DNA from: Alphaproteobacteria bacterium | GTDB taxonomy: Bacteria; Pseudomonadota; Alphaproteobacteria; GCA-2731375 | DNA length: 64,000 bases | Reading direction: 5' to 3' | Assembly (NCBI GenBank): GCA_965232515.1 | Contig: CBDDPY010000002.1 | Span: 6,144,001 to 6,208,000 of the forward strand | In this document: positions 33,556-46,574 of the stretch, piece by piece | Layout: every line of letters begins with the position of its first letter | Numbering within the stretch: the stretch's first letter is position 1 | Made by a program: the position numbers and the translations under genes | Notes under the pieces: generated by a model | Databases searched by the model: none | Seen by the model: only the letters and a program-made list of their open reading frames with translations | Told to the model about the DNA's origin: nothing

Positions 33556-33580
33556 GGCGCGGCAGCCCAATCTTCTGACC

Positions 33581-33666
33581 GTCATGCTGGCGTAGGCCAG
33601 CATCCACTGGCCGCGCAACACATTTGCGAGTCGACAAACTTGGATCCTGGCCTGCGCCAGGATGAC
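33581..33666. repeat. Inverted pair of REP-like elements (REPIN-like)
   Basis: GTCATGCTGGCGTAGGCCAGCATCCA (33581-33606) and TGGATCCTGGCCTGCGCCAGGATGAC (33641-33666) between convergent genes. Confidence 0.75.
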
Positions 33667-33690
33667 GAACGGGTCAGGCGTATCGGCGGT

Positions 33691-34743: not shown

Positions 34744-35559
34744 TTAGGGCGCCATGCTCAACACCGATTGCAGACCGGGGGCGGCGGCGAGGTCCTGCAC
34801 CACGTTGATCTGCACGAACAGATTGTTGTTCACGATGTTGAAGTCGCCGGGCACCTGGGTGATCTGGAAGATGCCGCTGGCGCCGTTCAGGTTGCCGACG
34901 ACGGTCTGGATGGTGACGTCGCCGTTGTTACCGACATTGACATCGGCCAGTGACGGCGCCGGCGCTGGCGGCCCGTTGACCACGAGGTTGCCGGTTGGAT
35001 TGCTGTTCGGCTGGATCGAGCCGCTGAAGATCACGCTGAAATCGAGGCCGTTGAAGGCACCGCGTTCGGTGGCCATCTCGCTCTCGTCCAACGCTGCCCA
35101 TTGCGGATTGAACACGGTCGCCGCGGCAAGGTGCCGGACGCCATCGATCGAACCCGCGGGCACACCATCGTCGGCGACGACCTCGACCAGGCTCGGCGGC
35201 AACGACATCACCCCCGACGTCGTGTCGTTTTTGGTCGATGTCGTACCATCGTCGGTCGGCGCGACCGGCGCGCGTTTGGCGAGCGTCGCCCAGTCGATCT
35301 TGGCGACGCTTGGCAGCTGCGCGACCTCGATCTCGACCTCGCCGCGCGACATCTCGACCTCTTTGGTCGTCACCGTCTGCGATTCCATATGGACGCGGAC
35401 GACGGGCACGAGCGCCGGCGCCAGCTCGGGCGGCGCCGAGGTCTGGGTTGTCGATGGTGGTGCGCAGGCGGCCAGCGTGAATAGCAGTGCGGCCGCCAAT
35501 GACCGCGGACGGGCGTTCGATCGCCGCCGCGGTTCAGTGTCTGGATTGGCGCATGGCAT
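34744..35559 (-). CDS. FapE-like protein with lipoprotein signal
   Basis: Lipobox LAAC; ALDESEMATERG motif; C-terminal repeat NGASGIFQITQVPGDFNIVNN; start overlaps the C39 peptidase stop. Confidence 0.65.
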   Translation of the reverse strand: MPCANPDTEPRRRSNARPRSLAAALLFTLAACAPPSTTQTSAPPELAPALVPVVRVHMESQTVTTKEVEMSRGEVEIEVAQLPSVAKIDWATLAKRAPVAPTDDGTTSTKNDTTSGVMSLPPSLVEVVADDGVPAGSIDGVRHLAAATVFNPQWAALDESEMATERGAFNGLDFSVIFSGSIQPNSNPTGNLVVNGPPAPAPSLADVNVGNNGDVTIQTVVGNLNGASGIFQITQVPGDFNIVNNNLFVQINVVQDLAAAPGLQSVLSMAP

Positions 35560-36233
35560 CAGAATTCACCTGCCAGCGGCCGGATCGTCGCCAAGTTGCG
35601 ACTGAGCAGCATCATGATTTCTTCGGACGGCCCCTTCACGACCTGGCTGGTGCGGAAGGACTCGTCGCCTTGCCGTTGCTGATCCACGACCGCGAGGATG
35701 ATGTTTTTCCACTCGGATTCGAATTGGTCGAGCGGGCGGGACAGGTTGCCGAAGGCGGGATCTGCGATCAGAACCCGGCCATTTTCGACGCCCTTTACGA
35801 CAACGAAATGCGCATAGCCACGGGTGTTGATAAGGGTGATGACGGGCACTTTGAGCTGAAGCAGGTCGCGTACGTTGGCCAATTGAAAGCCGTCGGCCGC
35901 GTAACCGCGCGCTTCCGCCGCCTTTTTCATTTCGAGCATCGAGAAGCCGCGCTTCTGGATCTCCTCGACGTCGCCGGCCGCGACCATGTCGTCGATCAGT
36001 TCGCGTTCGGTGCGGGGGTCGCTGTAGAAGTAGGTGAACAGCGTCGCCATCGCCGCGGCGCCACAACTGACATCGAAACCCTGCCGCACCACATTCTTGA
36101 AGCGCAGACCGGCCATGCTCTCGACCGGCACATTGAGCACGGTGTTGCCCGGAATGGCAAAGGTTTGCGCGGCCGCCGGCGCTGACAGCGCGAATACGGC
36201 AAGCAGTACGGTTATGAGGCGCCGGGCGGTCAT
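35559..36233 (-). CDS. C39 family peptidase (FapD-like)
   Basis: RQGFDVSCGAAA (Q, C), AHFVVV (H), IADPAFGN (D); signal peptide; GFSMLEMK. Confidence 0.92.
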   Translation of the reverse strand: MTARRLITVLLAVFALSAPAAAQTFAIPGNTVLNVPVESMAGLRFKNVVRQGFDVSCGAAAMATLFTYFYSDPRTERELIDDMVAAGDVEEIQKRGFSMLEMKKAAEARGYAADGFQLANVRDLLQLKVPVITLINTRGYAHFVVVKGVENGRVLIADPAFGNLSRPLDQFESEWKNIILAVVDQQRQGDESFRTSQVVKGPSEEIMMLLSRNLATIRPLAGEF

Positions 36234-37066
36234 TGCAGCGGCACCACATTGACCGACATCGCCAGCGCATTGCGCGCGATGTTGCCGTCGCCGGACGCCT
36301 GGCCGATCTGGGCGATGCCGCGGAAGTTGGTGAAGGAATCGGTGACGAAATCGCCGCGCGGCCGCTGCAGGCCATCCTCCTGGTAGATGGTCGTCAGATG
36401 GTTGTTCGCCACCTGCTCGTCGAGCGTGATCGCGTTCAGCGGCGACAGTGTCTGCGGGTTGTCGGCGATGCCGAGCGCCAGCGCGTTGGTTTGCTGGTTC
36501 AGGTTGCCGGCCGATTGATTGACGCCGACGATCCCGGTCGCGTTGTCGAAGCTGTTCATCACCGTATTGTCGCGGGCGACGTCGGTGACGGTAAGCCGGT
36601 TGTCGATCAGCCGGGTCTCGACAATGACCTCCTGCAGCTGCGTTTGATCGGCCGCCGTGCCGAGCGTGACGGCGCGCACATTGGCCTGATTGTTCAGGTT
36701 GCCGACTTCCTGATTGATGCTCATCATCCCGTGGGACTCGGAAAACGATTCGAAGATCGTGGTCCGACGCACCGGCTCCTCTGGCTCGCCGATGAACTTG
36801 ATGAAGGCCGGGTTGTCTTTAAACGTTTCGTAGTAGAGCGTGCCCGCGAGCGGATGCTCGACCTCGTCCTGCGTGATCGTGACGCGATTGCCGATCAGCG
36901 CCTGGTCGACCCTGGCGGTTGCCACCGCGGTGCTGCTGGAGAGCGCAGCGACACCGGCAATATCATTGACGCCAATGGACTGCGCACTTGCGGTAAGCGG
37001 CAGGATCGCCACGACGGCGACCGCGCCTGCCAGCGCAGCGTTGCGCCCTGGTCCTCTCCACGACAT
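36230..37066 (-). CDS. Fap-type amyloid minor subunit (FapB-like)
   Basis: Signal peptide; three repeats: SFSESHGMMSINQEVGNLNNQAN, SFDNATGIVGVNQSAGNLNQQTN, SFTNFRGIAQIGQASGDGNIARN. Confidence 0.75.
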   Translation of the reverse strand: MSWRGPGRNAALAGAVAVVAILPLTASAQSIGVNDIAGVAALSSSTAVATARVDQALIGNRVTITQDEVEHPLAGTLYYETFKDNPAFIKFIGEPEEPVRRTTIFESFSESHGMMSINQEVGNLNNQANVRAVTLGTAADQTQLQEVIVETRLIDNRLTVTDVARDNTVMNSFDNATGIVGVNQSAGNLNQQTNALALGIADNPQTLSPLNAITLDEQVANNHLTTIYQEDGLQRPRGDFVTDSFTNFRGIAQIGQASGDGNIARNALAMSVNVVPLQ

Positions 37067-37112
37067 TGCCCGTCACCAAAACCTGCTTATCCAAACGACT
37101 AAATGTCCCAAA

Positions 37113-37150
37113 CGAATAAAAAGAGCGGGGAGGGGGCGAGCCCCCTCCCG
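37113..37150 (-). terminator. Intrinsic terminator/attenuator between major and minor amyloid subunit genes
   Basis: Minus strand GGGAGGGGG-CTCG-CCCCCTCCC followed by CGCTCTTTTTATT. Confidence 0.75.
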
Positions 37151-37163
37151 AGCAAATAGCGGA

Positions 37164-38042
37164 TCAGATATTCGGTGCGCCGATCGTGACCTGCGACGTA
37201 AGCGCCGAGAAGGAAACGACCGAGGCCTGGTTGATGTAGTTGCCGGTGGTCTGGTTGACCGCCGTGATGCCGTTGTTGCCGGTGATCGATGCCGAGATGG
37301 TGTTCGACCGGGCGAAGTTCTCCTCGAACAACGTGTTGTTCTCGTTCTCCTGGCCCAAAGCCGACTCGGACAACGCGGCCGTGCCGTTGATGCCGACCGA
37401 CAGTGACACGGCATTGTGCTGGTTCACCGCATCGCCGGTATTCTGGTTCACGCCGACGATACCGCTGTTGCCGATCACCGAATTGGTCATGCTGTTGACA
37501 CGGGTTTCGTCGAACTTGACGACGACGATCGGCGGCTTGCCGGGTTCGTCGACCGTCTCGGTGCCGGTGTCGTTTTCGACCTGGACGAGGGTGTTGTCGT
37601 CGTTGTCCTGCTCGACCCACGCCTGCGCGTCGGCCGCCGACGATAGGCCGGTGGTCAGCGCGAAGGCCACGACGTTCCCCTGGTTGGCGAAGTTGCCGGC
37701 GTCCTGGTTCACGTGCGTGATGCCGGTATTGGCGTTGATCGAATCGACGATAACGGCGTCGAAATCGAGACCGAGTTCCTCCGAGCCATTGGTGTCATTG
37801 GTGACGAGCTCGTTCTCGGCGTTGACCACGGCCTCGGCTTCGGCCGCGCCTTCCGGCATGATCATCGACTCGACCTGAATGAACAACGCCTTGTCCTTCA
37901 GGATGTCCTCGTCGATGTTGATTTCCTTGTCCTTGTCGAGGAAGGCCTCGACATCGACATCAGCCATGGCCGACCAGGACGTTGTGCCAAGCAGCAGCGC
38001 CGTCGTCAGCCCCAGGCTTGCGTGTAAGAGCTTTCTCATCAC
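37164..38042 (-). CDS. Fap-type amyloid subunit (FapC-like, copy 2)
   Basis: Signal peptide ending AMA; repeats SINANTGITHVNQDAGNFANQGN, SVIGNSGIVGVNQNTGDAVNQHN, SITGNNGITAVNQTTGNYINQAS; GGAG RBS. Confidence 0.8.
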   Translation of the reverse strand: MMRKLLHASLGLTTALLLGTTSWSAMADVDVEAFLDKDKEINIDEDILKDKALFIQVESMIMPEGAAEAEAVVNAENELVTNDTNGSEELGLDFDAVIVDSINANTGITHVNQDAGNFANQGNVVAFALTTGLSSAADAQAWVEQDNDDNTLVQVENDTGTETVDEPGKPPIVVVKFDETRVNSMTNSVIGNSGIVGVNQNTGDAVNQHNAVSLSVGINGTAALSESALGQENENNTLFEENFARSNTISASITGNNGITAVNQTTGNYINQASVVSFSALTSQVTIGAPNI

Positions 38043-38083
38043 TTAGGCTCCCTTCCGTATTCGCTAGGTTGCCGCGACCGGGC

Positions 38084-38875
38084 TTACTGGATCACCGCCG
38101 ACCCGAAGGCCACGATGTTGCCCTGGTTCGAGTAGTTGCCAACCGACTGGTTGACGCCCGTGATGCCGCTGTTGTTGGTCACGGACGTGGTGAGCGTCGC
38201 CAACCGGAAAGCGTTCTGCTCGGTCAGAACCAGCTCGAGATTCAGCTGACCGAGATCGGCTTCCGTCAGGATCGTGCCCGCGCCACCGGCGCCCGTCGTC
38301 ACGGCCATCGAGACGGCGTTTGCCTGGTTGCTGAACACGCCGACGGCCTGGTTGACATGCGTGATGCCGCTGCCGCCTTGCACCGAACCGGTGATCAGGG
38401 CTTCACGCTCCGTGCCGTCAACCGAGTTGAACGGGACGTCGCTGTTGATCTGCTGGGCATTGGCCTGCGCCTCGCCGAAGCTCGGATCGGCGCCCGTCGC
38501 CACGGCCGCGCTGACGGCGTTGCCCTGGTTCAGGAAGTTACCGGAGGCCTGGTTCACGCTCAGCACGCCGGTGTTGGTGTTCGCCGAGTTTTCGATCGTG
38601 TCGGTGCGGAAGGTCTCGACTTCTTCCAGCTCGTTGTTGTCGTTCTTCTGGTAGACCTGCAGATCCGACTCCGCGAACTTCTCGACCATGGCCATCACCT
38701 GCACCTGCAGGAATACGGCCTTGTCCTTCAGGATATCCTCTTGGATGTCCTTGTCCTTGAACTTGAAGATCTCGGCGTCGACGTCGACCTCGCCCGAGCT
38801 CTCCTCTTCTTGCGCCAGCGCCGGACTCGTCATGAGGAGCAGCGCTGCTGCAGTGCTCAAAAGCACGTTTCTCAT
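38084..38875 (-). CDS. Fap-type amyloid subunit (FapC-like, copy 1)
   Basis: AGGAGG RBS; signal peptide ending ALA; repeats SANTNTGVLSVNQASGNFLNQGN, SVQGGSGITHVNQAVGVFSNQAN, SVTNNSGITGVNQSVGNYSNQGN. Confidence 0.8.
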   Translation of the reverse strand: MRNVLLSTAAALLLMTSPALAQEEESSGEVDVDAEIFKFKDKDIQEDILKDKAVFLQVQVMAMVEKFAESDLQVYQKNDNNELEEVETFRTDTIENSANTNTGVLSVNQASGNFLNQGNAVSAAVATGADPSFGEAQANAQQINSDVPFNSVDGTEREALITGSVQGGSGITHVNQAVGVFSNQANAVSMAVTTGAGGAGTILTEADLGQLNLELVLTEQNAFRLATLTTSVTNNSGITGVNQSVGNYSNQGNIVAFGSAVIQ

Positions 38876-39023
38876 GCTTTTTCCTCCTGTTAAATACCGC
38901 TGGTTACCGGCGTTGGCAGTCACTAGGGTGGAAGCCATTCATGAAGCCCACGGGAACCAGCCCGACGGCCCGCCGACGACGGGCCCCGATGAAAGCAGAT
39001 CATTCGGAAGGGAGCGGCGCGTC

Positions 39024-39035
39024 TCCCAAATGGGG
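39024..39035. promoter_or_regulatory. Putative LuxR-type operator box 1
   Basis: TCCCAAATGGGG (reverse complement CCCCATTTGGGA), about 150 bp upstream of the amyloid operon. Confidence 0.5.
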
Positions 39036-39137
39036 TAGCGGCGGCCATTTTTTTTGACACCGATACCCGTGCATGTCGGCTGACTGATGTCGGGGAACGT
39101 CGACAGCATTTTCGTCATCTGAACTTTGTCACCGCAT

Positions 39138-39155
39138 GACCCTCATTTGGGGGTC
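39138..39155. promoter_or_regulatory. Putative LuxR-type operator box 2
   Basis: Near-perfect 18-bp palindrome GACCCTCATTTGGGGGTC. Confidence 0.55.
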
Positions 39156-39416
39156 GCGGCCCGACGGACCTTTGTCTAGCGTGCGGCAACGACAGCGTGA
39201 CGATTGCCGGATTTTGCATCTCTCGACCGCACGGCAATCAGGTGTGCCGGGATTGGCCCCGCGCGCAGAAGGACCTCGCCAGTAAAGGCGTATTGCTGTC
39301 CCAGCGCGCAAGGCCGTCGTGTGTCAGTGTTGATTTGGCCTGTACGGAATTGCGCGTGCGTTGGGGAAACGTGTGGCAGTCCCATGTTCGCGCGTCGATC
39401 TGATGGGATGGGGGGT

Positions 39417-39608
39417 GTGATACAGGCAAACGACAATGAAAAGTCAATTGGCCCATTGACGGCCAAGGAATGGCTCGAACTCGACCACTGGTCGTTTCAG
39501 GAATTGCCGCGGCATGCCTACGCGTTGTTCACGAAGCTGCTTGACGCGCACAAAGTTCCGATCGAACGCTGGCATAGTCAGGATGCGGCCGATGGCCCCG
39601 AGCGCTGA
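39417..39608 (+). CDS. Uncharacterised 63-aa protein (paralog A)
   Basis: GPLTAKEWLELDHWSFQELPRHAY; aligns without gaps to 43522-43713; GTG start chosen from that alignment (alternative ATG 39408). Confidence 0.75.
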   Translation: MIQANDNEKSIGPLTAKEWLELDHWSFQELPRHAYALFTKLLDAHKVPIERWHSQDAADGPER

Positions 39609-39662
39609 CGAAGGTCGATGGCAAATGCCGAAGCTCGTCCGGATACGACGGGTCGCCGCGCG

Positions 39663-40442
39663 CTAGTCTGTCGCCAGGCGCGCATGGAGCGCTTGCAGCA
39701 ACCGCGAAAGCTCGCTTTGACGCCCGGTACCGGTCTTGTCGAACATGTGCTTCAGATGCGTGCGCGCCGTTCCGGTGGTCACACCGAGTTTTTCGGCGGT
39801 GAGATCCAGCCTGTCGCCGCCGGCCAACAACGCCGCAATCTGGCTTTCCGCCGGCGTCAGACCAAAGAGCTCTTCGAGATCGTGGGGCGGCAACGATACC
39901 GGCCGTTCCGGATCGGCAACGAAGACCACGATCGGATCGTGATCGTCCAGGTGCGACGGGTCTTGTCGCTGCAGCCGATATGCGGCGAGTAGAAGCGGCT
40001 GCCGATGATCGTGGCGGTCGATTGCGAGCACGTTCGTTGCCGGATCATCGTCACCGCGCGATCCGTCGCGAACACAGGCGACCATCCGGGCGAGTTCGCC
40101 CGCCTGCGTCGAACTGTCCACGCTCAGTCGACCGGCCGTGATCGACAGCCCGTCATCCTGCGCCACGATCTCATTCACGTATCTGTTCGACCAGAAGACA
40201 TGTTCCTGACGGTCGAGCAGTGCGACGCCAATCGCCAGCCTGTCGAGTGCCGCCGTGACGGCGGTTGTGAATTCGTCTGACGCAGCTGCTGTGCGTGCAA
40301 GATCATCGAGACGGTCGGTCAGAAGCCGACGCTGAGCCGCATCGACCGGGAGGTCCGCGATTTCATCAATGAGCTGAGAGATCGCAACCTGCAGCCGGTG
40401 CGTCGATGCGACCGTATCCGCTCGCTGACGCCCCACGCTCAT
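39663..40442 (-). CDS. PAS-like + LuxR-HTH transcriptional regulator (copy 1)
   Basis: ALDRLAIGVALLD..WSN..DDGL; C-terminal LFGLTPAESQIA..LGVTTGTARTHLKHMFDKTGTGRQSEL. Confidence 0.88.
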   Translation of the reverse strand: MSVGRQRADTVASTHRLQVAISQLIDEIADLPVDAAQRRLLTDRLDDLARTAAASDEFTTAVTAALDRLAIGVALLDRQEHVFWSNRYVNEIVAQDDGLSITAGRLSVDSSTQAGELARMVACVRDGSRGDDDPATNVLAIDRHDHRQPLLLAAYRLQRQDPSHLDDHDPIVVFVADPERPVSLPPHDLEELFGLTPAESQIAALLAGGDRLDLTAEKLGVTTGTARTHLKHMFDKTGTGRQSELSRLLQALHARLATD

Positions 40443-40644
40443 GAAATGCCCATCCCGGCATTTTGTTGTGGTTTGTTCTGCACGCGGCCCGAACCCCGAT
40501 GGCGCTTTATTGCTCCCAGACGCATTACTGAAGCAAACGAAGAGCCGACGTGATGTTCAGTACAGATGCAGCATTTACTACTTATATTAGTTTTAGTTCG
40601 AATATAATATTCGTCAGCCCTGAATATTCTCTACCTGTAGTATT

Positions 40645-40661
40645 AGCAAGCAGTGTGCCAA
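40645..40661 (-). promoter_or_regulatory. Sigma54 (-24/-12) promoter
   Basis: Minus strand TTGGCAC-ACTGC-TTGCT, an exact TGGCAC-N5-TTGC match about 200 bp upstream of regulator copy 1 in an AT-rich tract. Confidence 0.7.
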
Positions 40662-40851
40662 ACGTGGTTAATTCCAATTTATCTTCCTGAACAACGCCTT
40701 AAGACCGGCCGTGTGCTGCCGTGGGGCAAGAAAGTGTAAAATCCTCCGACAATGCGTCGAGATTCTTTACAGCTTAGCCAATCCATCCGAAGCAGGATTG
40801 TCCATACGAGGCGTCGTGCGCGTTTGGTTTCGGCGCGCGACCTCGCGTTGG

Positions 40852-41625
40852 TTAGCGGATCTTTCCGTGCAGAGAATGCAGAAGCCGGGCGAGTTCGCTT
40901 TGCCGGCCGGTGCCGGTCTTGTCGAAGATATGTTTGAGATGCGTGCGCGCGGTGCCTGTCGTCACGCCGAGCTTTTCGGCGGCGGAGTCCAGGCGGTCAC
41001 CGCCGGCCAGCCGGGCGGCTACCTGACTTTCGGCCGGCGTCAGGCCGAACAGCGTTTCGAGGTCTGCGGCCGGCAACGACATCGGTCGATCCGGATCGGC
41101 GACAAACACGGCCACGATATTGCGATGTCGTTGCGAGGTCGAATTCCCATGACGTAGTGGAAACGCCGCGACCAGGCATGGCCGCTCATGCCGCCGGCGG
41201 TCGATGGCCAGCACGGCGCCCGTCGTGTCGTCGGCGTCGCCTTGTCGATCGTGCGCCCGCTCTATCAGCCGGCTGAGTGCGTTCGCTTGCTCTGAGTTGT
41301 GCACCCGCAAGCGCCCGGCGGCGACGGTCAGTCCATCATCCTCTGCCAAGATGTCGTCCAGATACCGGTTCGACCAGATAACCGTCCCGGCGGCATCGAC
41401 AAGCGCGACGCCGACAGCGACCCGGTTCAATGTCCCAAGCGCGGCATCGGCGAGCGCTTGCGACTGCGCGACGGCTTTGCTGAGCGCATCGATCCGGGCG
41501 GTCAGCGCGTCGCGTCGTTGGGCGTCGATATCGAGGTTGGAAAGGTCGCGACGCATGCCCAACAAGACGTCGAGCAGCATACCCTGTCGGGTTGCAAGGT
41601 CTGTCCCCTCTCCCCTCATGTTCAT
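40852..41625 (-). CDS. PAS-like + LuxR-HTH transcriptional regulator (copy 2)
   Basis: LNRVAVGVALVD..WSN..DDGL; LGVTTGTARTHLKHIFDKTGTGRQSEL. Confidence 0.88.
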   Translation of the reverse strand: MNMRGEGTDLATRQGMLLDVLLGMRRDLSNLDIDAQRRDALTARIDALSKAVAQSQALADAALGTLNRVAVGVALVDAAGTVIWSNRYLDDILAEDDGLTVAAGRLRVHNSEQANALSRLIERAHDRQGDADDTTGAVLAIDRRRHERPCLVAAFPLRHGNSTSQRHRNIVAVFVADPDRPMSLPAADLETLFGLTPAESQVAARLAGGDRLDSAAEKLGVTTGTARTHLKHIFDKTGTGRQSELARLLHSLHGKIR

Positions 41626-41716
41626 GAAGATCTGGACCTCGGCCCTCAGCTAGGGCTAGCGCAAAATCAAGCCCGTTCAGGTGATCCGAAGTCTGTCAGC
41701 TTGCCGTGACCGTTTT

Positions 41717-41732
41717 TGTGACTTCGATCACT
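41717..41732. promoter_or_regulatory. CRP-family binding site
   Basis: TGTGA-CTTCGA-TCACT (9/10 match to TGTGA-N6-TCACA); weaker TGTGA-ACACAG-TTACG at 41820-41835. Confidence 0.55.
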
Positions 41733-41973
41733 CTTGGTCGCGCGTTACCAGAATGTCACAGCGCGACGATGTCGAAGATGGATGGGCAGAACACGCTCCT
41801 GATCGCTCGCCCTTCCATATGTGAACACAGTTACGTGTCAGTCTTGCGAAACCTGAAGCGTCGCGGCGGCGCGCGTCGATCGTTTTGACCGCGATCAGAG
41901 TTCGTTTCGTTTGCGATGCTGCGCCCCGCGAACCCACAGACGCCGCCGGATGTCCGGTTGCAGGTTTGGCTTG

Positions 41974-41986
41974 CCCCATTTGGGGG
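41974..41986. promoter_or_regulatory. Putative LuxR-type operator box 3
   Basis: CCCCATTTGGGGG about 170 bp upstream of the N-acyl synthase gene. Confidence 0.5.
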
Positions 41987-42150
41987 ACGACTCCGCCAGT
42001 TGCACATGATCAGTTTGGATGCTCGGAAATCTGCCGGCTGGCGTCGAATGTCGGCTTGCCGGCGACAGGAGGCGTTGCCACGACCGGGGGAGGAACGGGG
42101 CACCGGATGCGCAACGGCATCAATACGAATAAGAACGACAGGAGGTTCAG

Positions 42151-43053
42151 ATGCCCGCTCGCGTGCCCCAATCCTGTAAAGCCGGTCGCCTGCCCATTCA
42201 GCACGACACGTCGCTTCTACAGGCGTTCGACAGGTTTTTCAGCGTCGTCACGGCCGACACGCCCGACCTGGTGCGGGAGGCGCACCGTTTGCGTCATCAG
42301 GTCTATTGCGTCGAAAACGATTTCGAGCCGCGCGATCGCAATCCGAACGGACTTGAGATCGACGCCTACGACGCCCGGTCGGCGCATAGCCTGCTGTATT
42401 TCGCACCGAGCCGACGGTTTATCGGAACCGTACGGCTGGTGCTGCCCGATGCCCGGCATCCGTATCGGAGCTTTCCGTTCCAGAGCATTTGCGGTGCGCG
42501 GCTTCGTGCCGTGCGCGACGCGGCGGAGGTTTCGCGGTTTTGCATTTCGCGCGAACTGCGACGGCCGCCGATGACGACAGGGATGCGGATCGCCGCGCTG
42601 TCCGGCGCTGGCGGCGCCCCGGCGACCGTCGACGCGGTCGACGAGGGTCGCCGGATCCTGCCTTATGCGGCCATGGGTCTGGTGCGCGGCCTTGTCGAGA
42701 CGAGTATGGCCAATGGGGTCAAGCACTGGTTGGTTTTGGCGGCGCCGACACTGTTGCGATTCCTCGCCGGCTTCGGCATTCACCTTGATCCCGTCGCGCC
42801 CATGGTCGACTTCCATGGCCCGCGCGTGCCCTGTTGTTCGAACCTGCAGCAATTGCTGGAGCTGGCACGGCAAGAACGGCCGGAGATTTGGCGCATACTG
42901 ACCGATGACGGCAGATTGGAGGTTCGCGGCGGTTCGTTCGCGTCGCCGATCAAGTCCAGGCATCGACCGGGGCGCGCGGAGCCGCGGCGCGGGGGCCGAT
43001 GGTGGCCCAGAGAGCGGCCGCCGTCCGTCCGACCTCACAGTCACTACACGTAA
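42151..43053 (+). CDS. N-acyl amino acid synthase, FeeM/ExoAT (PEP-CTERM-associated acyltransferase) type
   Basis: AGGAGG RBS; RLRHQVYCVENDFE, GLEIDAYDARSAHSLL, IGTVRLVLP, AEVSRFCIS, DFHGPRVP. Confidence 0.82.
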   Translation: MPARVPQSCKAGRLPIQHDTSLLQAFDRFFSVVTADTPDLVREAHRLRHQVYCVENDFEPRDRNPNGLEIDAYDARSAHSLLYFAPSRRFIGTVRLVLPDARHPYRSFPFQSICGARLRAVRDAAEVSRFCISRELRRPPMTTGMRIAALSGAGGAPATVDAVDEGRRILPYAAMGLVRGLVETSMANGVKHWLVLAAPTLLRFLAGFGIHLDPVAPMVDFHGPRVPCCSNLQQLLELARQERPEIWRILTDDGRLEVRGGSFASPIKSRHRPGRAEPRRGGRWWPRERPPSVRPHSHYT

Positions 43054-43419
43054 ATGTCACGTCGGACGCCTTGATCTGACACTGGCGAGCGCTCACTTCT
43101 GGGTCGCACGAATGCTCATTATCCCCTAATATTCCCGCGGTTCAGGCGATCTGAATTGGGGGTCGGAAAAGTTGGGGGATGGGCATCGCCCACGATGCCG
43201 AAGCCGTGCTCGGCGATGCTCGCGGATCGTGGTTAGCAACGCTGCGGAATCGCGATCGCCTGTGTGGCCGGTACCAACACGAACGACTCAAAAAGACGAT
43301 TACGGGACGGCGGCGGCGTCTCGACGAGGGCTGCCCGGCAATCCAGTACGCAGGACTTGTGGGCATCGGCGCGTTGAACCTAGGTACTTTTCCGGGCTCA
43401 CGCGTCTTGCGGAGGAATG

Positions 43420-43435
43420 TTAAGGATTTGTTAAC
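43420..43435. promoter_or_regulatory. CtrA binding site
   Basis: TTAA-GGATTTG-TTAAC, an exact TTAA-N7-TTAAC match about 90 bp upstream of microprotein B. Confidence 0.65.
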
Positions 43436-43521
43436 ACTTTCGGGAATACAGAGTTGGGATGCGCGAAACTGCCGATACTGCTTTCCTGTCGGACAGCCGT
43501 GTCATTGATCGGGACACGGAC

Positions 43522-43713
43522 GTGAGCTCGGACAACGATAAGAAGCAGAAATTCGGGCCGCTCACCGGCGAGGAATGGCTGGAGTTGGACACCTGGGCAT
43601 TCCAGGAACTGCCGCGCCACGCCTACGATATGTTCAGGAAAGTCGTCGAGAGCCACAACGTGCCGATCGATCATTGGCACGACGACAAGAAGCCGGACGC
43701 GCCGGACGGCTGA
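43522..43713 (+). CDS. Uncharacterised 63-aa protein (paralog B)
   Basis: GPLTGEEWLELDTWAFQELPRHAY; about half of positions identical to paralog A; alternative ATG 43459. Confidence 0.75.
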   Translation: MSSDNDKKQKFGPLTGEEWLELDTWAFQELPRHAYDMFRKVVESHNVPIDHWHDDKKPDAPDG

Positions 43714-43718
43714 TCCCG

Positions 43719-44507
43719 TCAGGACCTGTCGTCGGATTCCGACCGGTTCCAAAGAAGTTTGCCGAGCAACGCGCGGAGCAGGCGACTCAGCTCCCCCTGT
43801 CGGCCGGTACTGGTTTTCTGAAAGATATGCTTGAGATGGGTGCGCGCGGTTCCCGTGGCGACGCCCAATTCCGCAGCCGCGAGATCGAGGCGTTTGCCGG
43901 CGGCAAGGCGTGCGGCGAGCTCGCTTTCGGAATGCGTCAAATCGAACAACGAGGCGATGTGGCCGGCGTCGAGACGCTCGTCGCGTTGCGGGTCGGTGAC
44001 GAACACGGCGACATAATGCGCTGCGGCCGGCGCCGGCTGGTCCAGCGATCGCACGGCGGCATGATAAGAGCGCCTTCCCGATGGTCGCGCCAGCGTAATC
44101 ACGCCGGTCGCCATCTCTCCGTCACCGCAGCGATCGCCGATTTCCCTGATTCGTCGGTGCAGATCCAATGACTGCTTGCGGGTCGACGCACGCAGTTCGC
44201 CGCCGATAATTGACAGGCCGTCAGCCTCAGTCAGTATCTCGCTGCAATAGCGGTTGGCCCAGACGACATGGCAGCCCGGATCGACAACGGCGACGCCGAT
44301 CGACAGCTGATCGAGCGCGGCGAAGCCGGCGAGCGCGAGGTCTTCCGTCGGATTGTCGCCGCGTGCGAATTCAGATTGGCCGGGCGTGGCGGCATGATCG
44401 GTATCCGCATATGACAGCCTGGCCGAACCGCGGTCAGGCGGCCGCCGAGAGCGTGCTAAGCGACCAGAGTTCTCCGTAACGTCCGCCGCGCTATTCTTCT
44501 TGCTCAT
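43719..44507 (-). CDS. PAS-like + LuxR-HTH transcriptional regulator (copy 3)
   Basis: ALDQLSIGVAVVD..WAN..ADGL; LGVATGTARTHLKHIFQKTSTGRQGEL; start uncertain. Confidence 0.85.
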   Translation of the reverse strand: MSKKNSAADVTENSGRLARSRRPPDRGSARLSYADTDHAATPGQSEFARGDNPTEDLALAGFAALDQLSIGVAVVDPGCHVVWANRYCSEILTEADGLSIIGGELRASTRKQSLDLHRRIREIGDRCGDGEMATGVITLARPSGRRSYHAAVRSLDQPAPAAAHYVAVFVTDPQRDERLDAGHIASLFDLTHSESELAARLAAGKRLDLAAAELGVATGTARTHLKHIFQKTSTGRQGELSRLLRALLGKLLWNRSESDDRS

Positions 44508-44856
44508 GGGTCCTCGGCCTCCCTGCCCCTGGAGACGGGCTCGAAACCCCAACAAGATCACCGAAGCGAGTTATGGCCGCTGTCGGTGTATCGGCTCTGA
44601 AAACATCAACGCACCGAGCTTGCACCAAGCGGCGGATTGGTGCGTCATTCGATCGGTGGGCCGTCTACGCGTCGCTGCCGATGCTAACCGGTCGCTCTCT
44701 TGCCCAACCGCGGCCGATCGAATGAAAACCGAAAGATCAATATAACGAGTTTCTTATCGACGGTCGACAACTTCGCCGGCCGCGCGTTTTGCCCCGTGCC
44801 GATGTCGTATTGAACAGTGTGCATGTTCGTCGGCGGATCTGGAAATGGATGGCGAC

Positions 44857-45564
44857 ATGGGATCGGGTCGTTTCAAAACCATCGTCAACCTGGCGGCCAT
44901 ATTGGGGTTGCTGGCGGCCTGTTCGAAAGACGACGCGAATCCGGTAACGGCCGACGGCGCCGGCGACGAGATTAGCGTGATGGATTTCACCGAACCGTTC
45001 CCGCTCGACCCGCCGCCCGAAGGTTGGCGCCACCGGACCTTCTGGACCCGGCCGGCCATGGAAATCGGGTTCGCCGACAAGGACGGCGTCAAGGCGTTGC
45101 GCTGCGAGACGGATGGCAGCGGCTCGATCTTCGGCCGCAACACCGACGTCGCACTCGCGGACTATCCGCTGCTGGCCTGGCGCTGGCATGTGGAACTGCC
45201 GATCGACAGCGATCTCGATGAAGCGACCGAAGCCGGCGACGACCACCCGGCGCGCCTGTTCATTCGCATCGACGACGGGGCGGGCGAGGAACGCTACCTC
45301 GAGATTATTTGGAGCAACCGGAAGTACGCGCCTGGCGACTACAAGTATATCGGCGACTTTCCGCACTATGTGGCCAACGGACACGACGAAAACGCCGGCC
45401 GCTGGCATGACGAGCAGGTCGATCTGCTGGCGATCTATCGGACGATCACCAAGCGTGACGACGCGCCGCGGGTGAAGCTGATCGCCATTTTCTGCGACAG
45501 CGACGATACCGGCAGCCGCAGCATCGCCTATTTCGCCGACGTGCGCCTGCGGCGCGCGGATTAA
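44857..45564 (+). CDS. DUF3047-like lipoprotein
   Basis: Lipobox LAAC; YPLLAWRWHV, GDDHPARLF, DSDDTGS..AYFAD. Confidence 0.78.
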   Translation: MGSGRFKTIVNLAAILGLLAACSKDDANPVTADGAGDEISVMDFTEPFPLDPPPEGWRHRTFWTRPAMEIGFADKDGVKALRCETDGSGSIFGRNTDVALADYPLLAWRWHVELPIDSDLDEATEAGDDHPARLFIRIDDGAGEERYLEIIWSNRKYAPGDYKYIGDFPHYVANGHDENAGRWHDEQVDLLAIYRTITKRDDAPRVKLIAIFCDSDDTGSRSIAYFADVRLRRAD

Positions 45565-45634: not shown

Positions 45635-46093
45635 ATGGAACTTGCCGTCGCGCGCGGCCGGATCTCCGGCCCCGTCGCCATCCTTGCGCTGATCGGATTG
45701 CTGCTGACCGGGGCTGCTTACGCCGCCGGTTTCATCAACACGTTGGGCTACGAGAGCCGCCATGCAACGTTTTCCGGCTTCGCCAGCGGGACGCGTTCCG
45801 GAACCAGCGTCGGCCTGAAGCACATGCTGTTCTTCGAAGGGCAGACATTCTATGCGGCCTATGATGCCGAGGTGCGGCAGGGCTCGCTCCGGATCGGCAT
45901 TCTGGAGACCTTCGGGCCGATCGGCGACAAGCCGCATTTCGTCGAGAGCGTCACCGGCAACAGCCGTGGCGAGGTCGTCTACCGCATTCCCAAGACCAGC
46001 GTGTACTCGATTTATTTCGAGGGGTCTGTTCTGGGCGGTGACACGGGCCGTGGCTACGACGTCAGCTACACGGTGCGTTGGGGCGCGCGGTAG
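45635..46093 (+). CDS. Hypothetical membrane-anchored protein (tandem paralog 1)
   Basis: N-terminal TM; NTLGYE, FFEGQTF, GSVLG, VRWGAR shared with the next gene. Confidence 0.75.
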   Translation: MELAVARGRISGPVAILALIGLLLTGAAYAAGFINTLGYESRHATFSGFASGTRSGTSVGLKHMLFFEGQTFYAAYDAEVRQGSLRIGILETFGPIGDKPHFVESVTGNSRGEVVYRIPKTSVYSIYFEGSVLGGDTGRGYDVSYTVRWGAR

Positions 46094-46112: not shown

Positions 46113-46574
46113 ATGCAGGAAGCGACGAGGCCACAACGGCGCAACGCGTCTATCGCGATGTTCGCCATCCCGCTTGTCTTGGTGCTGATGTGGACCGGCT
46201 ACGCGACGGGCTGGCTGAACACGCTGGGATATGAATACCGGCACGACAGGCTGAGCGGCTTCATGGGCGGCGGCGGCCAGGGCGGCAGCTTCGGCGTGAA
46301 CGATTTCTACTTCTTTGAAGGCCAGACATTCTTCGCGCAGTACGACGTCGAGGTGCGCCGGGGCGCGCTGGCGATCGGCATTTTCAAGCTGATCGACAAC
46401 CCGGACGACCGGATCCACTTTGTCCGTCACATAAAGGACAGCGGCCGCGGCGAGGTAACGTTCCGGATTCCCGAGACCGGTTTTTATACGATGTATTTCG
46501 ACGGATCGGTCCTGGGCCACAAATCGCGCCCGGGCATGGACGTCACCTACTCCGTGCGCTGGGGCGTGCGGTAG
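46113..46574 (+). CDS. Hypothetical membrane-anchored protein (tandem paralog 2)
   Basis: N-terminal TM; NTLGYE, FFEGQTF, GSVLG, VRWGVR. Confidence 0.75.
   Translation: MQEATRPQRRNASIAMFAIPLVLVLMWTGYATGWLNTLGYEYRHDRLSGFMGGGGQGGSFGVNDFYFFEGQTFFAQYDVEVRRGALAIGIFKLIDNPDDRIHFVRHIKDSGRGEVTFRIPETGFYTMYFDGSVLGHKSRPGMDVTYSVRWGVR

Follow-up and report, generated by a model that had tools for sequence, protein, structure and literature searches.

The stretch analysed here, referred to as the window, comprises 64,000 nucleotides of an alphaproteobacterial contig (CBDDPY010000002.1, positions 6,144,001 to 6,208,000) and contains an island in which two genes for small paralogous proteins, m1 and m2, each converge tail to tail on a gene for a regulator that combines a PAS sensor domain with a LuxR-type helix-turn-helix (HTH) domain. 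Three regulator genes of this kind (R1, R2 and R3), an acyltransferase gene and an operon resembling the Fap amyloid system share the island with them. The two microproteins and their possible relation to the regulators are the subject of this report, and the coordinates of all features are collected in Table 1.

Table 1. Features of the island in window coordinates. L001 and L002, contigs of the same metagenome-assembled genome (MAG); pLDDT, predicted local distance difference test; dN/dS, ratio of nonsynonymous (dN) to synonymous (dS) substitution rates.
Feature	Position	Strand	Remarks
m1, 63-residue microprotein, GTG start	39417..39608	+	Basis: BLASTP, L002 ortholog, dN/dS ~0.14
m2 core open reading frame from GTG, 63 residues, m1 paralog	43522..43713	+	Basis: core pLDDT >90, dN/dS 0.137
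Candidate m2 5' extension of 21 codons (ATG, 84 residues), or conserved 5' leader	43459..43521	+	
R1, PAS + LuxR-HTH regulator	39663..40442	-	Convergent with m1, 54-bp gap
R2, PAS + LuxR-HTH regulator	40852..41625	-	Closest paralog of R1; no microprotein
R3, PAS + LuxR-HTH regulator	43719..44507	-	Convergent with m2, 5-bp gap
Palindrome CCCCA-WW-TGGGG, copy 1, one mismatch	39024..39035		Between Fap-like operon and m1; identical in L002
Palindrome CCCCA-WW-TGGGG, copy 2, one mismatch	39141..39152		265 nt before m1; identical in L002
Palindrome CCCCA-WW-TGGGG, exact	41974..41985		Between R2 and acyltransferase
Looser palindrome copy AATTGGGGGTCG (motif family D8)	43154..43165	+	~300 nt before m2 ATG; conserved in L001
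TTAAGGA-N3-GTTAAC element	43420..43435	+	24 nt before ATG 43459, 87 nt before GTG 43522
TIGR03694 PEP-CTERM/exosortase-associated acyltransferase, FeeM-like, LuxI-related	42151..43053	+	Upstream of m2, between R2 and m2
Fap-like amyloid operon: FapD-like C39 peptidase and three FapB/C-like repeat proteins	35559..38938	-	Divergent from m1

The first-pass annotation had described two 192-nt open reading frames (ORFs) as gap-free paralogs, and BLASTP comparison of the two 63-residue products bore this out: 33 of 62 positions were identical and 44 of 62 positive, without gaps and with an E value of 6e-27. When both products were used as tblastn queries against the window, these two copies were recovered and the next match lay at E 0.21. 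The convergence of each ORF on a regulator ORF was likewise confirmed, with gaps of 54 bp for m1 (39609-39662) and 5 bp for m2 (43714-43718). The guanine-plus-cytosine (GC) content at the three codon positions was 0.62/0.39/0.67 in m1 and 0.61/0.34/0.84 in the m2 core, the same kind of pattern as that of the regulator genes (0.68-0.73/0.45-0.53/0.70-0.74). Comparison of m1 with its ortholog in L002 gave a dN of 0.158 and a dS of 1.116 (dN/dS of about 0.14), and comparison of the m2 core (codons 32-75 of the 84-codon ORF) with its ortholog in L001 gave a dN/dS of 0.137; between the m1 and m2 paralogs dN was 0.346 and dS was saturated. These results indicate that m1 and m2 are real genes whose protein core is under purifying selection. 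The opposite view, that they are chance ORFs or conserved non-coding elements, can point to the shortness of both ORFs and to the many spurious ORFs that high-GC DNA yields, such as an antisense ORF of 110 residues over m2; it is effectively refuted by the paralog match, by 13 clusters of relatives in independent metagenomes, by the low dN/dS together with the gene-typical codon-position GC content and by a confidently predicted fold.

Of the two GTG starts proposed in the first pass, that of m1 held and that of m2 proved ambiguous. The m1 ortholog in L002 (P0010, 63 residues, beginning MIQANDN) begins at the same codon as GTG 39417; because of a 1-nt indel in a G run upstream of m1, the ATGs further upstream are not in frame in L002, and ATG 39384 is absent there. 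The alignment therefore supports GTG 39417 as the only conserved in-frame start of m1. For m2, the frame from ATG 43459 is open in all seven m2-clade sequences (the window, P0003-P0007 and L001) and would give proteins of 82-84 residues. GTG 43522 has in its favour that the extension of 21-31 extra codons shows a dN/dS of 0.9-1.2, with a low dS (0.14-0.23) compared with 0.90 in the core, that residues 1-21 of the m2 model are disordered (pLDDT <50) and that all 10 m1/m2-clade rows retain the Val/GTG position. In m1 and m2 alike, a GGGA box precedes the GTG by 7-8 nt. The product of m2 may thus be the 63-residue form from GTG 43522, or it may be the 84-residue form from ATG 43459.

We then placed the two proteins among their relatives. 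A hidden Markov model (HMM) built from 9 sequences was searched over 1,835,955,588 representative proteins with E values up to 0.001 and no length limit, and it matched 14 proteins, 13 of which are small proteins or clusters of 61-137 residues with the same core. All family members are stand-alone small proteins, no longer or fused form having been recovered by this search. The remaining match, P0022 (982 residues, 6 matched stretches), was dropped as a leucine-rich-repeat protein in which the repeated 'LQELP' imitates the motif. Word-indexed searches returned 5 relatives of m2 and 3 of m1, the latter including the window's own protein. In an alignment of 21 members (A2), residues G33, L35, W40, L43, W46, F48, Q49, Y56, H66 and P69 were invariant in all 21, and P34, L41, D44, E50, L51, P52, R53, F59, V68 and W73 were nearly so. 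The motif that had been written out by hand for m1 and m2 was correct, its core residues recurring across the aligned family, which reads [FY]GPLxGxEWLELDxWAFQELPRxxYxxFxxxxxxHxVPxxxW. The core is tryptophan-rich and about 45 residues long; the tails on either side of it differ in length and charge from member to member. The net charge of the core was between -6 and 0 in 21 of 21 members, with isoelectric points (pI) of 5.4 for m1 and 4.7 for m2; such an acidic-to-neutral core speaks for a module that contacts proteins rather than one that binds DNA.

The statement that m1 and m2 fall into no recognised family was borne out in Pfam, NCBIfam, PADLOC and PHROGs, none of which gave a match above cutoff. 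For m1, no Pfam or NCBIfam family was found, the sole weak Pfam match being Lambda_tail_I (7 of 21 members, E 0.016 or worse, below cutoff); the family had no match in PADLOC and one in PHROGs at E 0.056. The family profile of 21 members, searched against 177,635 PDB sequences with E values up to 10, returned LRRTM and Cdc7 kinase only, both spurious. A tblastn search with m2 against plasmids and 50,697 phage records gave no match, and the ESM Atlas, queried with the whole protein and with the core, gave no usable one. An AlphaFold2 model of m2 based on the 21-row alignment had a mean pLDDT of 72.5, rising to 90-95 in each 10-residue block between 31 and 70, and showed a short beta bridge followed by helices at 37-50, 53-65 and 70-75; a conserved three-helix domain of about 45 residues is thus confidently modelled. 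Foldseek comparison of this model with the PDB (E up to 10) returned two unrelated proteins, Usp28 and ferritin, at E >7, small helical domains being hard for Foldseek, and comparison with BFVD returned 29 matches, all at E >2 and the best at 2.6. No description of the family was found in the literature, where an unnamed family is hard to search for by words. Taken together, m1 and m2 belong to a rare, new and unnamed family of small cytoplasmic proteins with a predicted three-helix core.

The regulators were characterized in the same way. The first-pass annotation had placed a PAS-LuxR gene beside each microprotein, which was confirmed; three such genes rather than two are present, R2 being the additional one. 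R1 and R2 are 54% identical, R1 and R3 44%, and R2 and R3 46%. The R3 ORF is open to 44561, and its database form of 262 residues starts at 44507. The GerE domain scored 18-22 bits in R1, R2 and R3, just below the cutoff of 23.5, and the Pfam PAS matches were likewise below cutoff. A sequence-profile search of the PDB matched LuxR-type DNA-binding domains, including that of VpsT. The AlphaFold2 model of R3 (mean pLDDT 75.8) gave 90 PDB matches by Foldseek at E up to 0.001, the best being full-length VqmA (7dwm_B, E 6.8e-7; also 6kju, 6ugl and 6ide) and EL222 (3p7n_A, E 1.6e-6), followed by many PAS and LOV domains. R3 alone of the regulators was modelled, and the 44-46% identity of R1 and R2 to it suggests that they share the PAS fold. 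The Autoind_bind domain, which binds acyl-homoserine lactones (AHLs), was not matched in R1-R3. The label PAS-LuxR given in the first pass is therefore appropriate, and R1-R3 are one-component sensor regulators, not AHL receptors. A search of the window by tblastn with m1 and m2 detected no third, degenerate microprotein copy or remnant by R2. The R1-R2 spacer (40443-40851, 409 bp) is AT-richer and holds no convincing ORF and no microprotein remnant. The idea that a microprotein is a regulator fragment acting as a decoy was tried and rejected, with an hhalign probability of 0.1% between A2 and the regulator alignment (A6).

Having characterized both partners in the window, we turned to other genomes. 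A scan of 185,579 species genomes yielded 20 pattern matches, from which three loci were confirmed (L001, L002 and L003), and DNA context was read at five family loci, namely window m1, window m2, L001, L002 and L003. The island is reproduced in one alphaproteobacterial MAG, of which L001 and L002 are separate contigs: fap-like genes and m1 lie on L002, and R1, R2, m2 and R3 lie on L001, where the convergent m2-R3 gap is 5 bp as in the window. A convergent PAS-LuxR gene was present within 60 bp at three of the five loci (window m1, 54 bp; window m2, 5 bp; L001, 5 bp); of the other two, L002 is readable for only 207 bp past m1 and L003 has none. L003, in a Rhodospirillaceae MAG, encodes the homolog P0014 (52% identity), with a GGAG box before its ATG. 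Two pairs of m2-like and R3-like proteins, P0004 with P0024 (1559) and P0007 with P0030 (22324), have matching longest-contig values, which is suggestive of linkage in close relatives only. A short inverted repeat at 33579-33667 of the window matches both MAG contig ends (L002 7325-7357; L001 1-22), with 94% identity over 33 nt. Judged from these sequences, a dispersed repeat probably broke the MAG assembly between m1 and R1, and the contigs would join across an inserted repeat.

The history of the unit was examined by phylogeny, with all 23 rows of A6 in the regulator tree and all 21 rows of A2 in the microprotein tree. Support values were 100/99 for the R1-R2 pair, 99/97 for the R3 clade and 100/99 for all 13 island-type regulators; among the microproteins they were 96/96 for m1 and 86/89 for m2, and just 71/84 for m1 plus m2 as one side of a branch. 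These trees fit one duplication of a convergent microprotein-regulator unit followed by duplication of a regulator alone, which is not proven, the microprotein alignment being short. The duplicated cassette envisaged in the first pass is accordingly compatible with the trees and with the recurrence of the m2-R3 pair in L001, and stands short of proof.

Several candidate cis-elements were found in the intergenic DNA. The palindrome CCCCA-WW-TGGGG, allowing up to one mismatch, occurs at three sites in 64 kb, all of them intergenic and within the island, where 0.38 would be expected and none of 100 shuffles reached three; L002 keeps both sites between the fap-like genes and m1 unchanged though the DNA around them varies. 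On this sequence pattern, we regard the palindrome as a candidate operator of the PAS-LuxR regulators. The pattern TTAAGGA-N(0-14)-GTTAAC occurs once in the window and in none of 100 shuffles, and it was also found at the same place in L001 (2695-2710) and upstream of the distant homolog in L003 (9653-9674), the spacer being N(3-9) among these sites, and not in L002. This element is treated as a lead only, because the pattern was defined post hoc. When the regions upstream of m1 and m2 were compared in a four-way alignment, no convincing common block emerged beyond the G-run motif, and a scan for sigma-70 promoters and terminators gave nothing above shuffles. Terminator-like sites in 38800-44900 numbered 9 against 6.3 expected, and the consensus scan placed none in the 54-bp or the 5-bp gap.

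The neighbouring genes point to a possible signal and a possible output. The acyltransferase scored 221.9 bits with TIGR03694 (cutoff 111.95) and 35.8 with FeeM (above its cutoff of 27), and 20.4 with Autoind_synth, below the cutoff of 24. The MAG locus lacks the acyltransferase together with its promoter, about 1.3 kb in all. Relative to L001, the window segment at about 41760-43050, which holds the acyltransferase, the promoter and the exact palindrome, is an indel of about 1.3 kb; 'TGTCAC' words occur close to its two boundaries, and positions 43026-43068 contain a 19-nt inverted repeat. The Fap-like genes all scored well below the equivalog cutoffs (FapD 141.6 versus 330; FapB 73.5 versus 190; FapC 38.6-53.1 versus 195), and FapA, FapE and FapF were not recognised among the ORFs scanned; the gene following the C39 peptidase (34744-35559) matched no family. 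The operon is possibly a divergent alphaproteobacterial amyloid system. Between it and m1, the 480-bp region 38939-39416 matches the MAG with 86% identity across 495 alignment columns, an unusual degree of conservation for intergenic DNA. A long structured leader, or regulatory sites packed densely, could explain this; an Rfam search of 38800-44900 gave one chance match (E 0.3) and nothing in this region. Beyond R3 lies a DUF3047 gene. Two tandem paralogs on the forward strand (45635-46093 and 46194-46574, ~126-152 residues) share, by eye, '...NTLGYE.RH...FFEGQTF...VRWG.R', and no Pfam or NCBIfam family was found for either.

As to function, we tentatively favour the reading that each microprotein binds the PAS-LuxR regulator on which its gene converges and modulates it. 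In this scheme m1 would contact R1, and perhaps R2, and m2 would contact R3; contact would titrate or tune the activity of the regulator, the microprotein being an anti-activator or a co-factor, and the tail-to-tail layout would couple the expression of the two. The binding, the direction of its effect and the specificity of the pairs are points that we infer. This modulator role is favoured because there are two independent microprotein-regulator pairs and because the 5-bp m2-R3 junction is conserved. The trees, being compatible with co-duplication, and the acidic-to-neutral core also speak for it. A predicted complex of R3 (A6) with m2 (A2) scored 0.21 against a mark of 0.32 in a run without controls, and speaks neither for nor against binding. 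Several observations weigh against the modulator role. The m1-R1 junction of the window has no counterpart in the 207 bp that follow m1 in L002 or in the first 174 bp of L001, which precede R1, and the tight m1-R1 spacing is therefore not conserved. R2 stands without a microprotein. In L003, no PAS-LuxR gene was found within 10 kb on either side of the homolog (tblastn with R1-R3; A6 HMM in six frames over 20,177 bp), and the genes around it encode a histidine kinase, an OmpR-type response regulator, an extracytoplasmic function (ECF) sigma factor and a Metal_resist protein; this one locus thus supplies a homolog without a linked LuxR-type gene, which the first-pass annotation had named as grounds for refuting its reading. 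The stretch EWLELDxWAFQELPR is almost invariant among members of 33-53% identity in different contexts, which is easier to reconcile with a conserved partner than with a fast-evolving regulator restricted to a lineage. Finally, neither the PDB profile search nor Foldseek turned up a solved LuxR-binding protein resembling the family in sequence or fold.

Some of these same observations suit the explanation that ranks a close second in our estimate, hardly less probable than the first: that the microprotein is an output effector, regulated by the island or by whatever regulator is close by, and binds another conserved protein, for instance one belonging to the transcription machinery or a further repressor, in the way that the small protein Qtip works downstream of the phage VqmA. 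It would account for a motif nearly invariant across differing genomic contexts and for the L003 homolog, whose neighbours are a two-component system and an ECF sigma operon, with no PAS-LuxR gene; it can also cite TTAAGGA..GTTAAC upstream of m2, its L001 ortholog and the L003 homolog, the island palindrome upstream of m1, and the precedent of vqmR and qtip, which are activated by VqmA-type regulators (PMC8284805, in the sections cited). An output effector, however, leaves unexplained why both paralogs keep a convergent PAS-LuxR neighbour and why the m2-R3 junction stays at 5 bp; it names no candidate partner, and the upstream elements are post hoc. We think it improbable that the arrangement is itself the mechanism, with overlapping convergent 3' ends, mutual antisense or transcriptional interference and a secondary role for the protein. 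The 5-bp gap in both the window and L001 and the lack of a terminator-like site in either gap would suit such interference, which is also compatible with the other explanations, but purifying selection on the core and family-wide conservation of the motif show that the protein matters, other DNA is inserted after m1 in the MAG, and the L003 homolog has no convergent partner. Equally improbable is the suggestion that the microprotein is a miniature DNA-binding protein, an HTH-like three-helix domain with a basic arm that is itself a transcription factor: the predicted three-helix bundle and the K/R-rich segments before the core or in the C-terminal tail of several members (P0011, P0014, P0018 and P0019) agree with it, whereas the acidic-to-neutral core of all 21 members and the low pI of m1 and m2 do not, and neither a Pfam HTH family nor, apart from two unrelated chains at E up to 10, a PDB fold match was found.

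The modulator role can be carried further, to dedicated partners of VqmA-like PAS-LuxR receptors, serving as anti-activators or specificity co-factors, in a non-AHL circuit with a signal from the LuxI-related N-acyl-transferase and a Fap-like amyloid output; this fuller scheme we consider unlikely. Even without binding, m1 and m2 represent an unnamed microprotein family that is strongly conserved and predicted to be well folded, with 13 clusters in 1.84 billion representatives, and the two candidate cis-elements make the island experimentally tractable.

Among known systems, CsgD/curli resembles the island in having a LuxR-type regulator beside an amyloid-fibre operon, an operon that CsgD controls, and JGI names three distant R3 homologs 'CsgD family'. 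The match of R3 to the CsgD model was negligible (E 0.21), CsgD is not known to carry a PAS domain, and no CsgD-linked microprotein is known to us. A second parallel is VqmA, where the vqmR and qtip genes are adjacent to their VqmA-type regulator. VqmA and VqmA(Phage) have an N-terminal PAS domain and a C-terminal HTH domain, as does R3 according to the Foldseek comparison, at an identity of only 15-18% between R3 and VqmA; regulators of this type activate a small gene, either vqmR, which specifies a small RNA, or qtip, which encodes the small protein Qtip in phage VP882 (PMC8284805). In the sections cited of that source, the small gene is the target of the regulator and no action back on the regulator is described, unlike the modulation proposed for the microproteins here.

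Control of LuxR-type regulators by small proteins can be compared, as in the first pass, with TraM, which inactivates the LuxR-type TraR by direct contact in Agrobacterium and Rhizobium and has a paralog, TraM2, in some strains, and with QslA, QteE and phage Aqs1, negative regulators of LasR/RhlR, which block dimerisation or DNA binding of a LuxR-type receptor or destabilise it (PMC13043044, in the sections cited). The structures of TraM (2Q0O), QslA (4NG2) and Aqs1 (6V7W) listed there were not among the PDB profile or Foldseek matches of m1 and m2, and the microprotein family was without a match in the phage records and without a significant one in PHROGs. The partner of TraM is an AHL-binding LuxR receptor, whereas the presumed partners of m1 and m2 carry a PAS sensor instead. 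Given the lack of sequence or fold similarity and the different sensor domain, m1 and m2 lie outside the TraM, QslA and Aqs1 families and would at most work alike. The same sections describe small-protein control for AHL receptors and none for the PAS-sensor branch (PMC13043044). If m1 and m2 do bind R1-R3, they would add a new fold and a new family to the control of LuxR-type regulators and extend it to the PAS-sensor branch, in a system that links a LuxI-like acyltransferase to amyloid-fibre genes.

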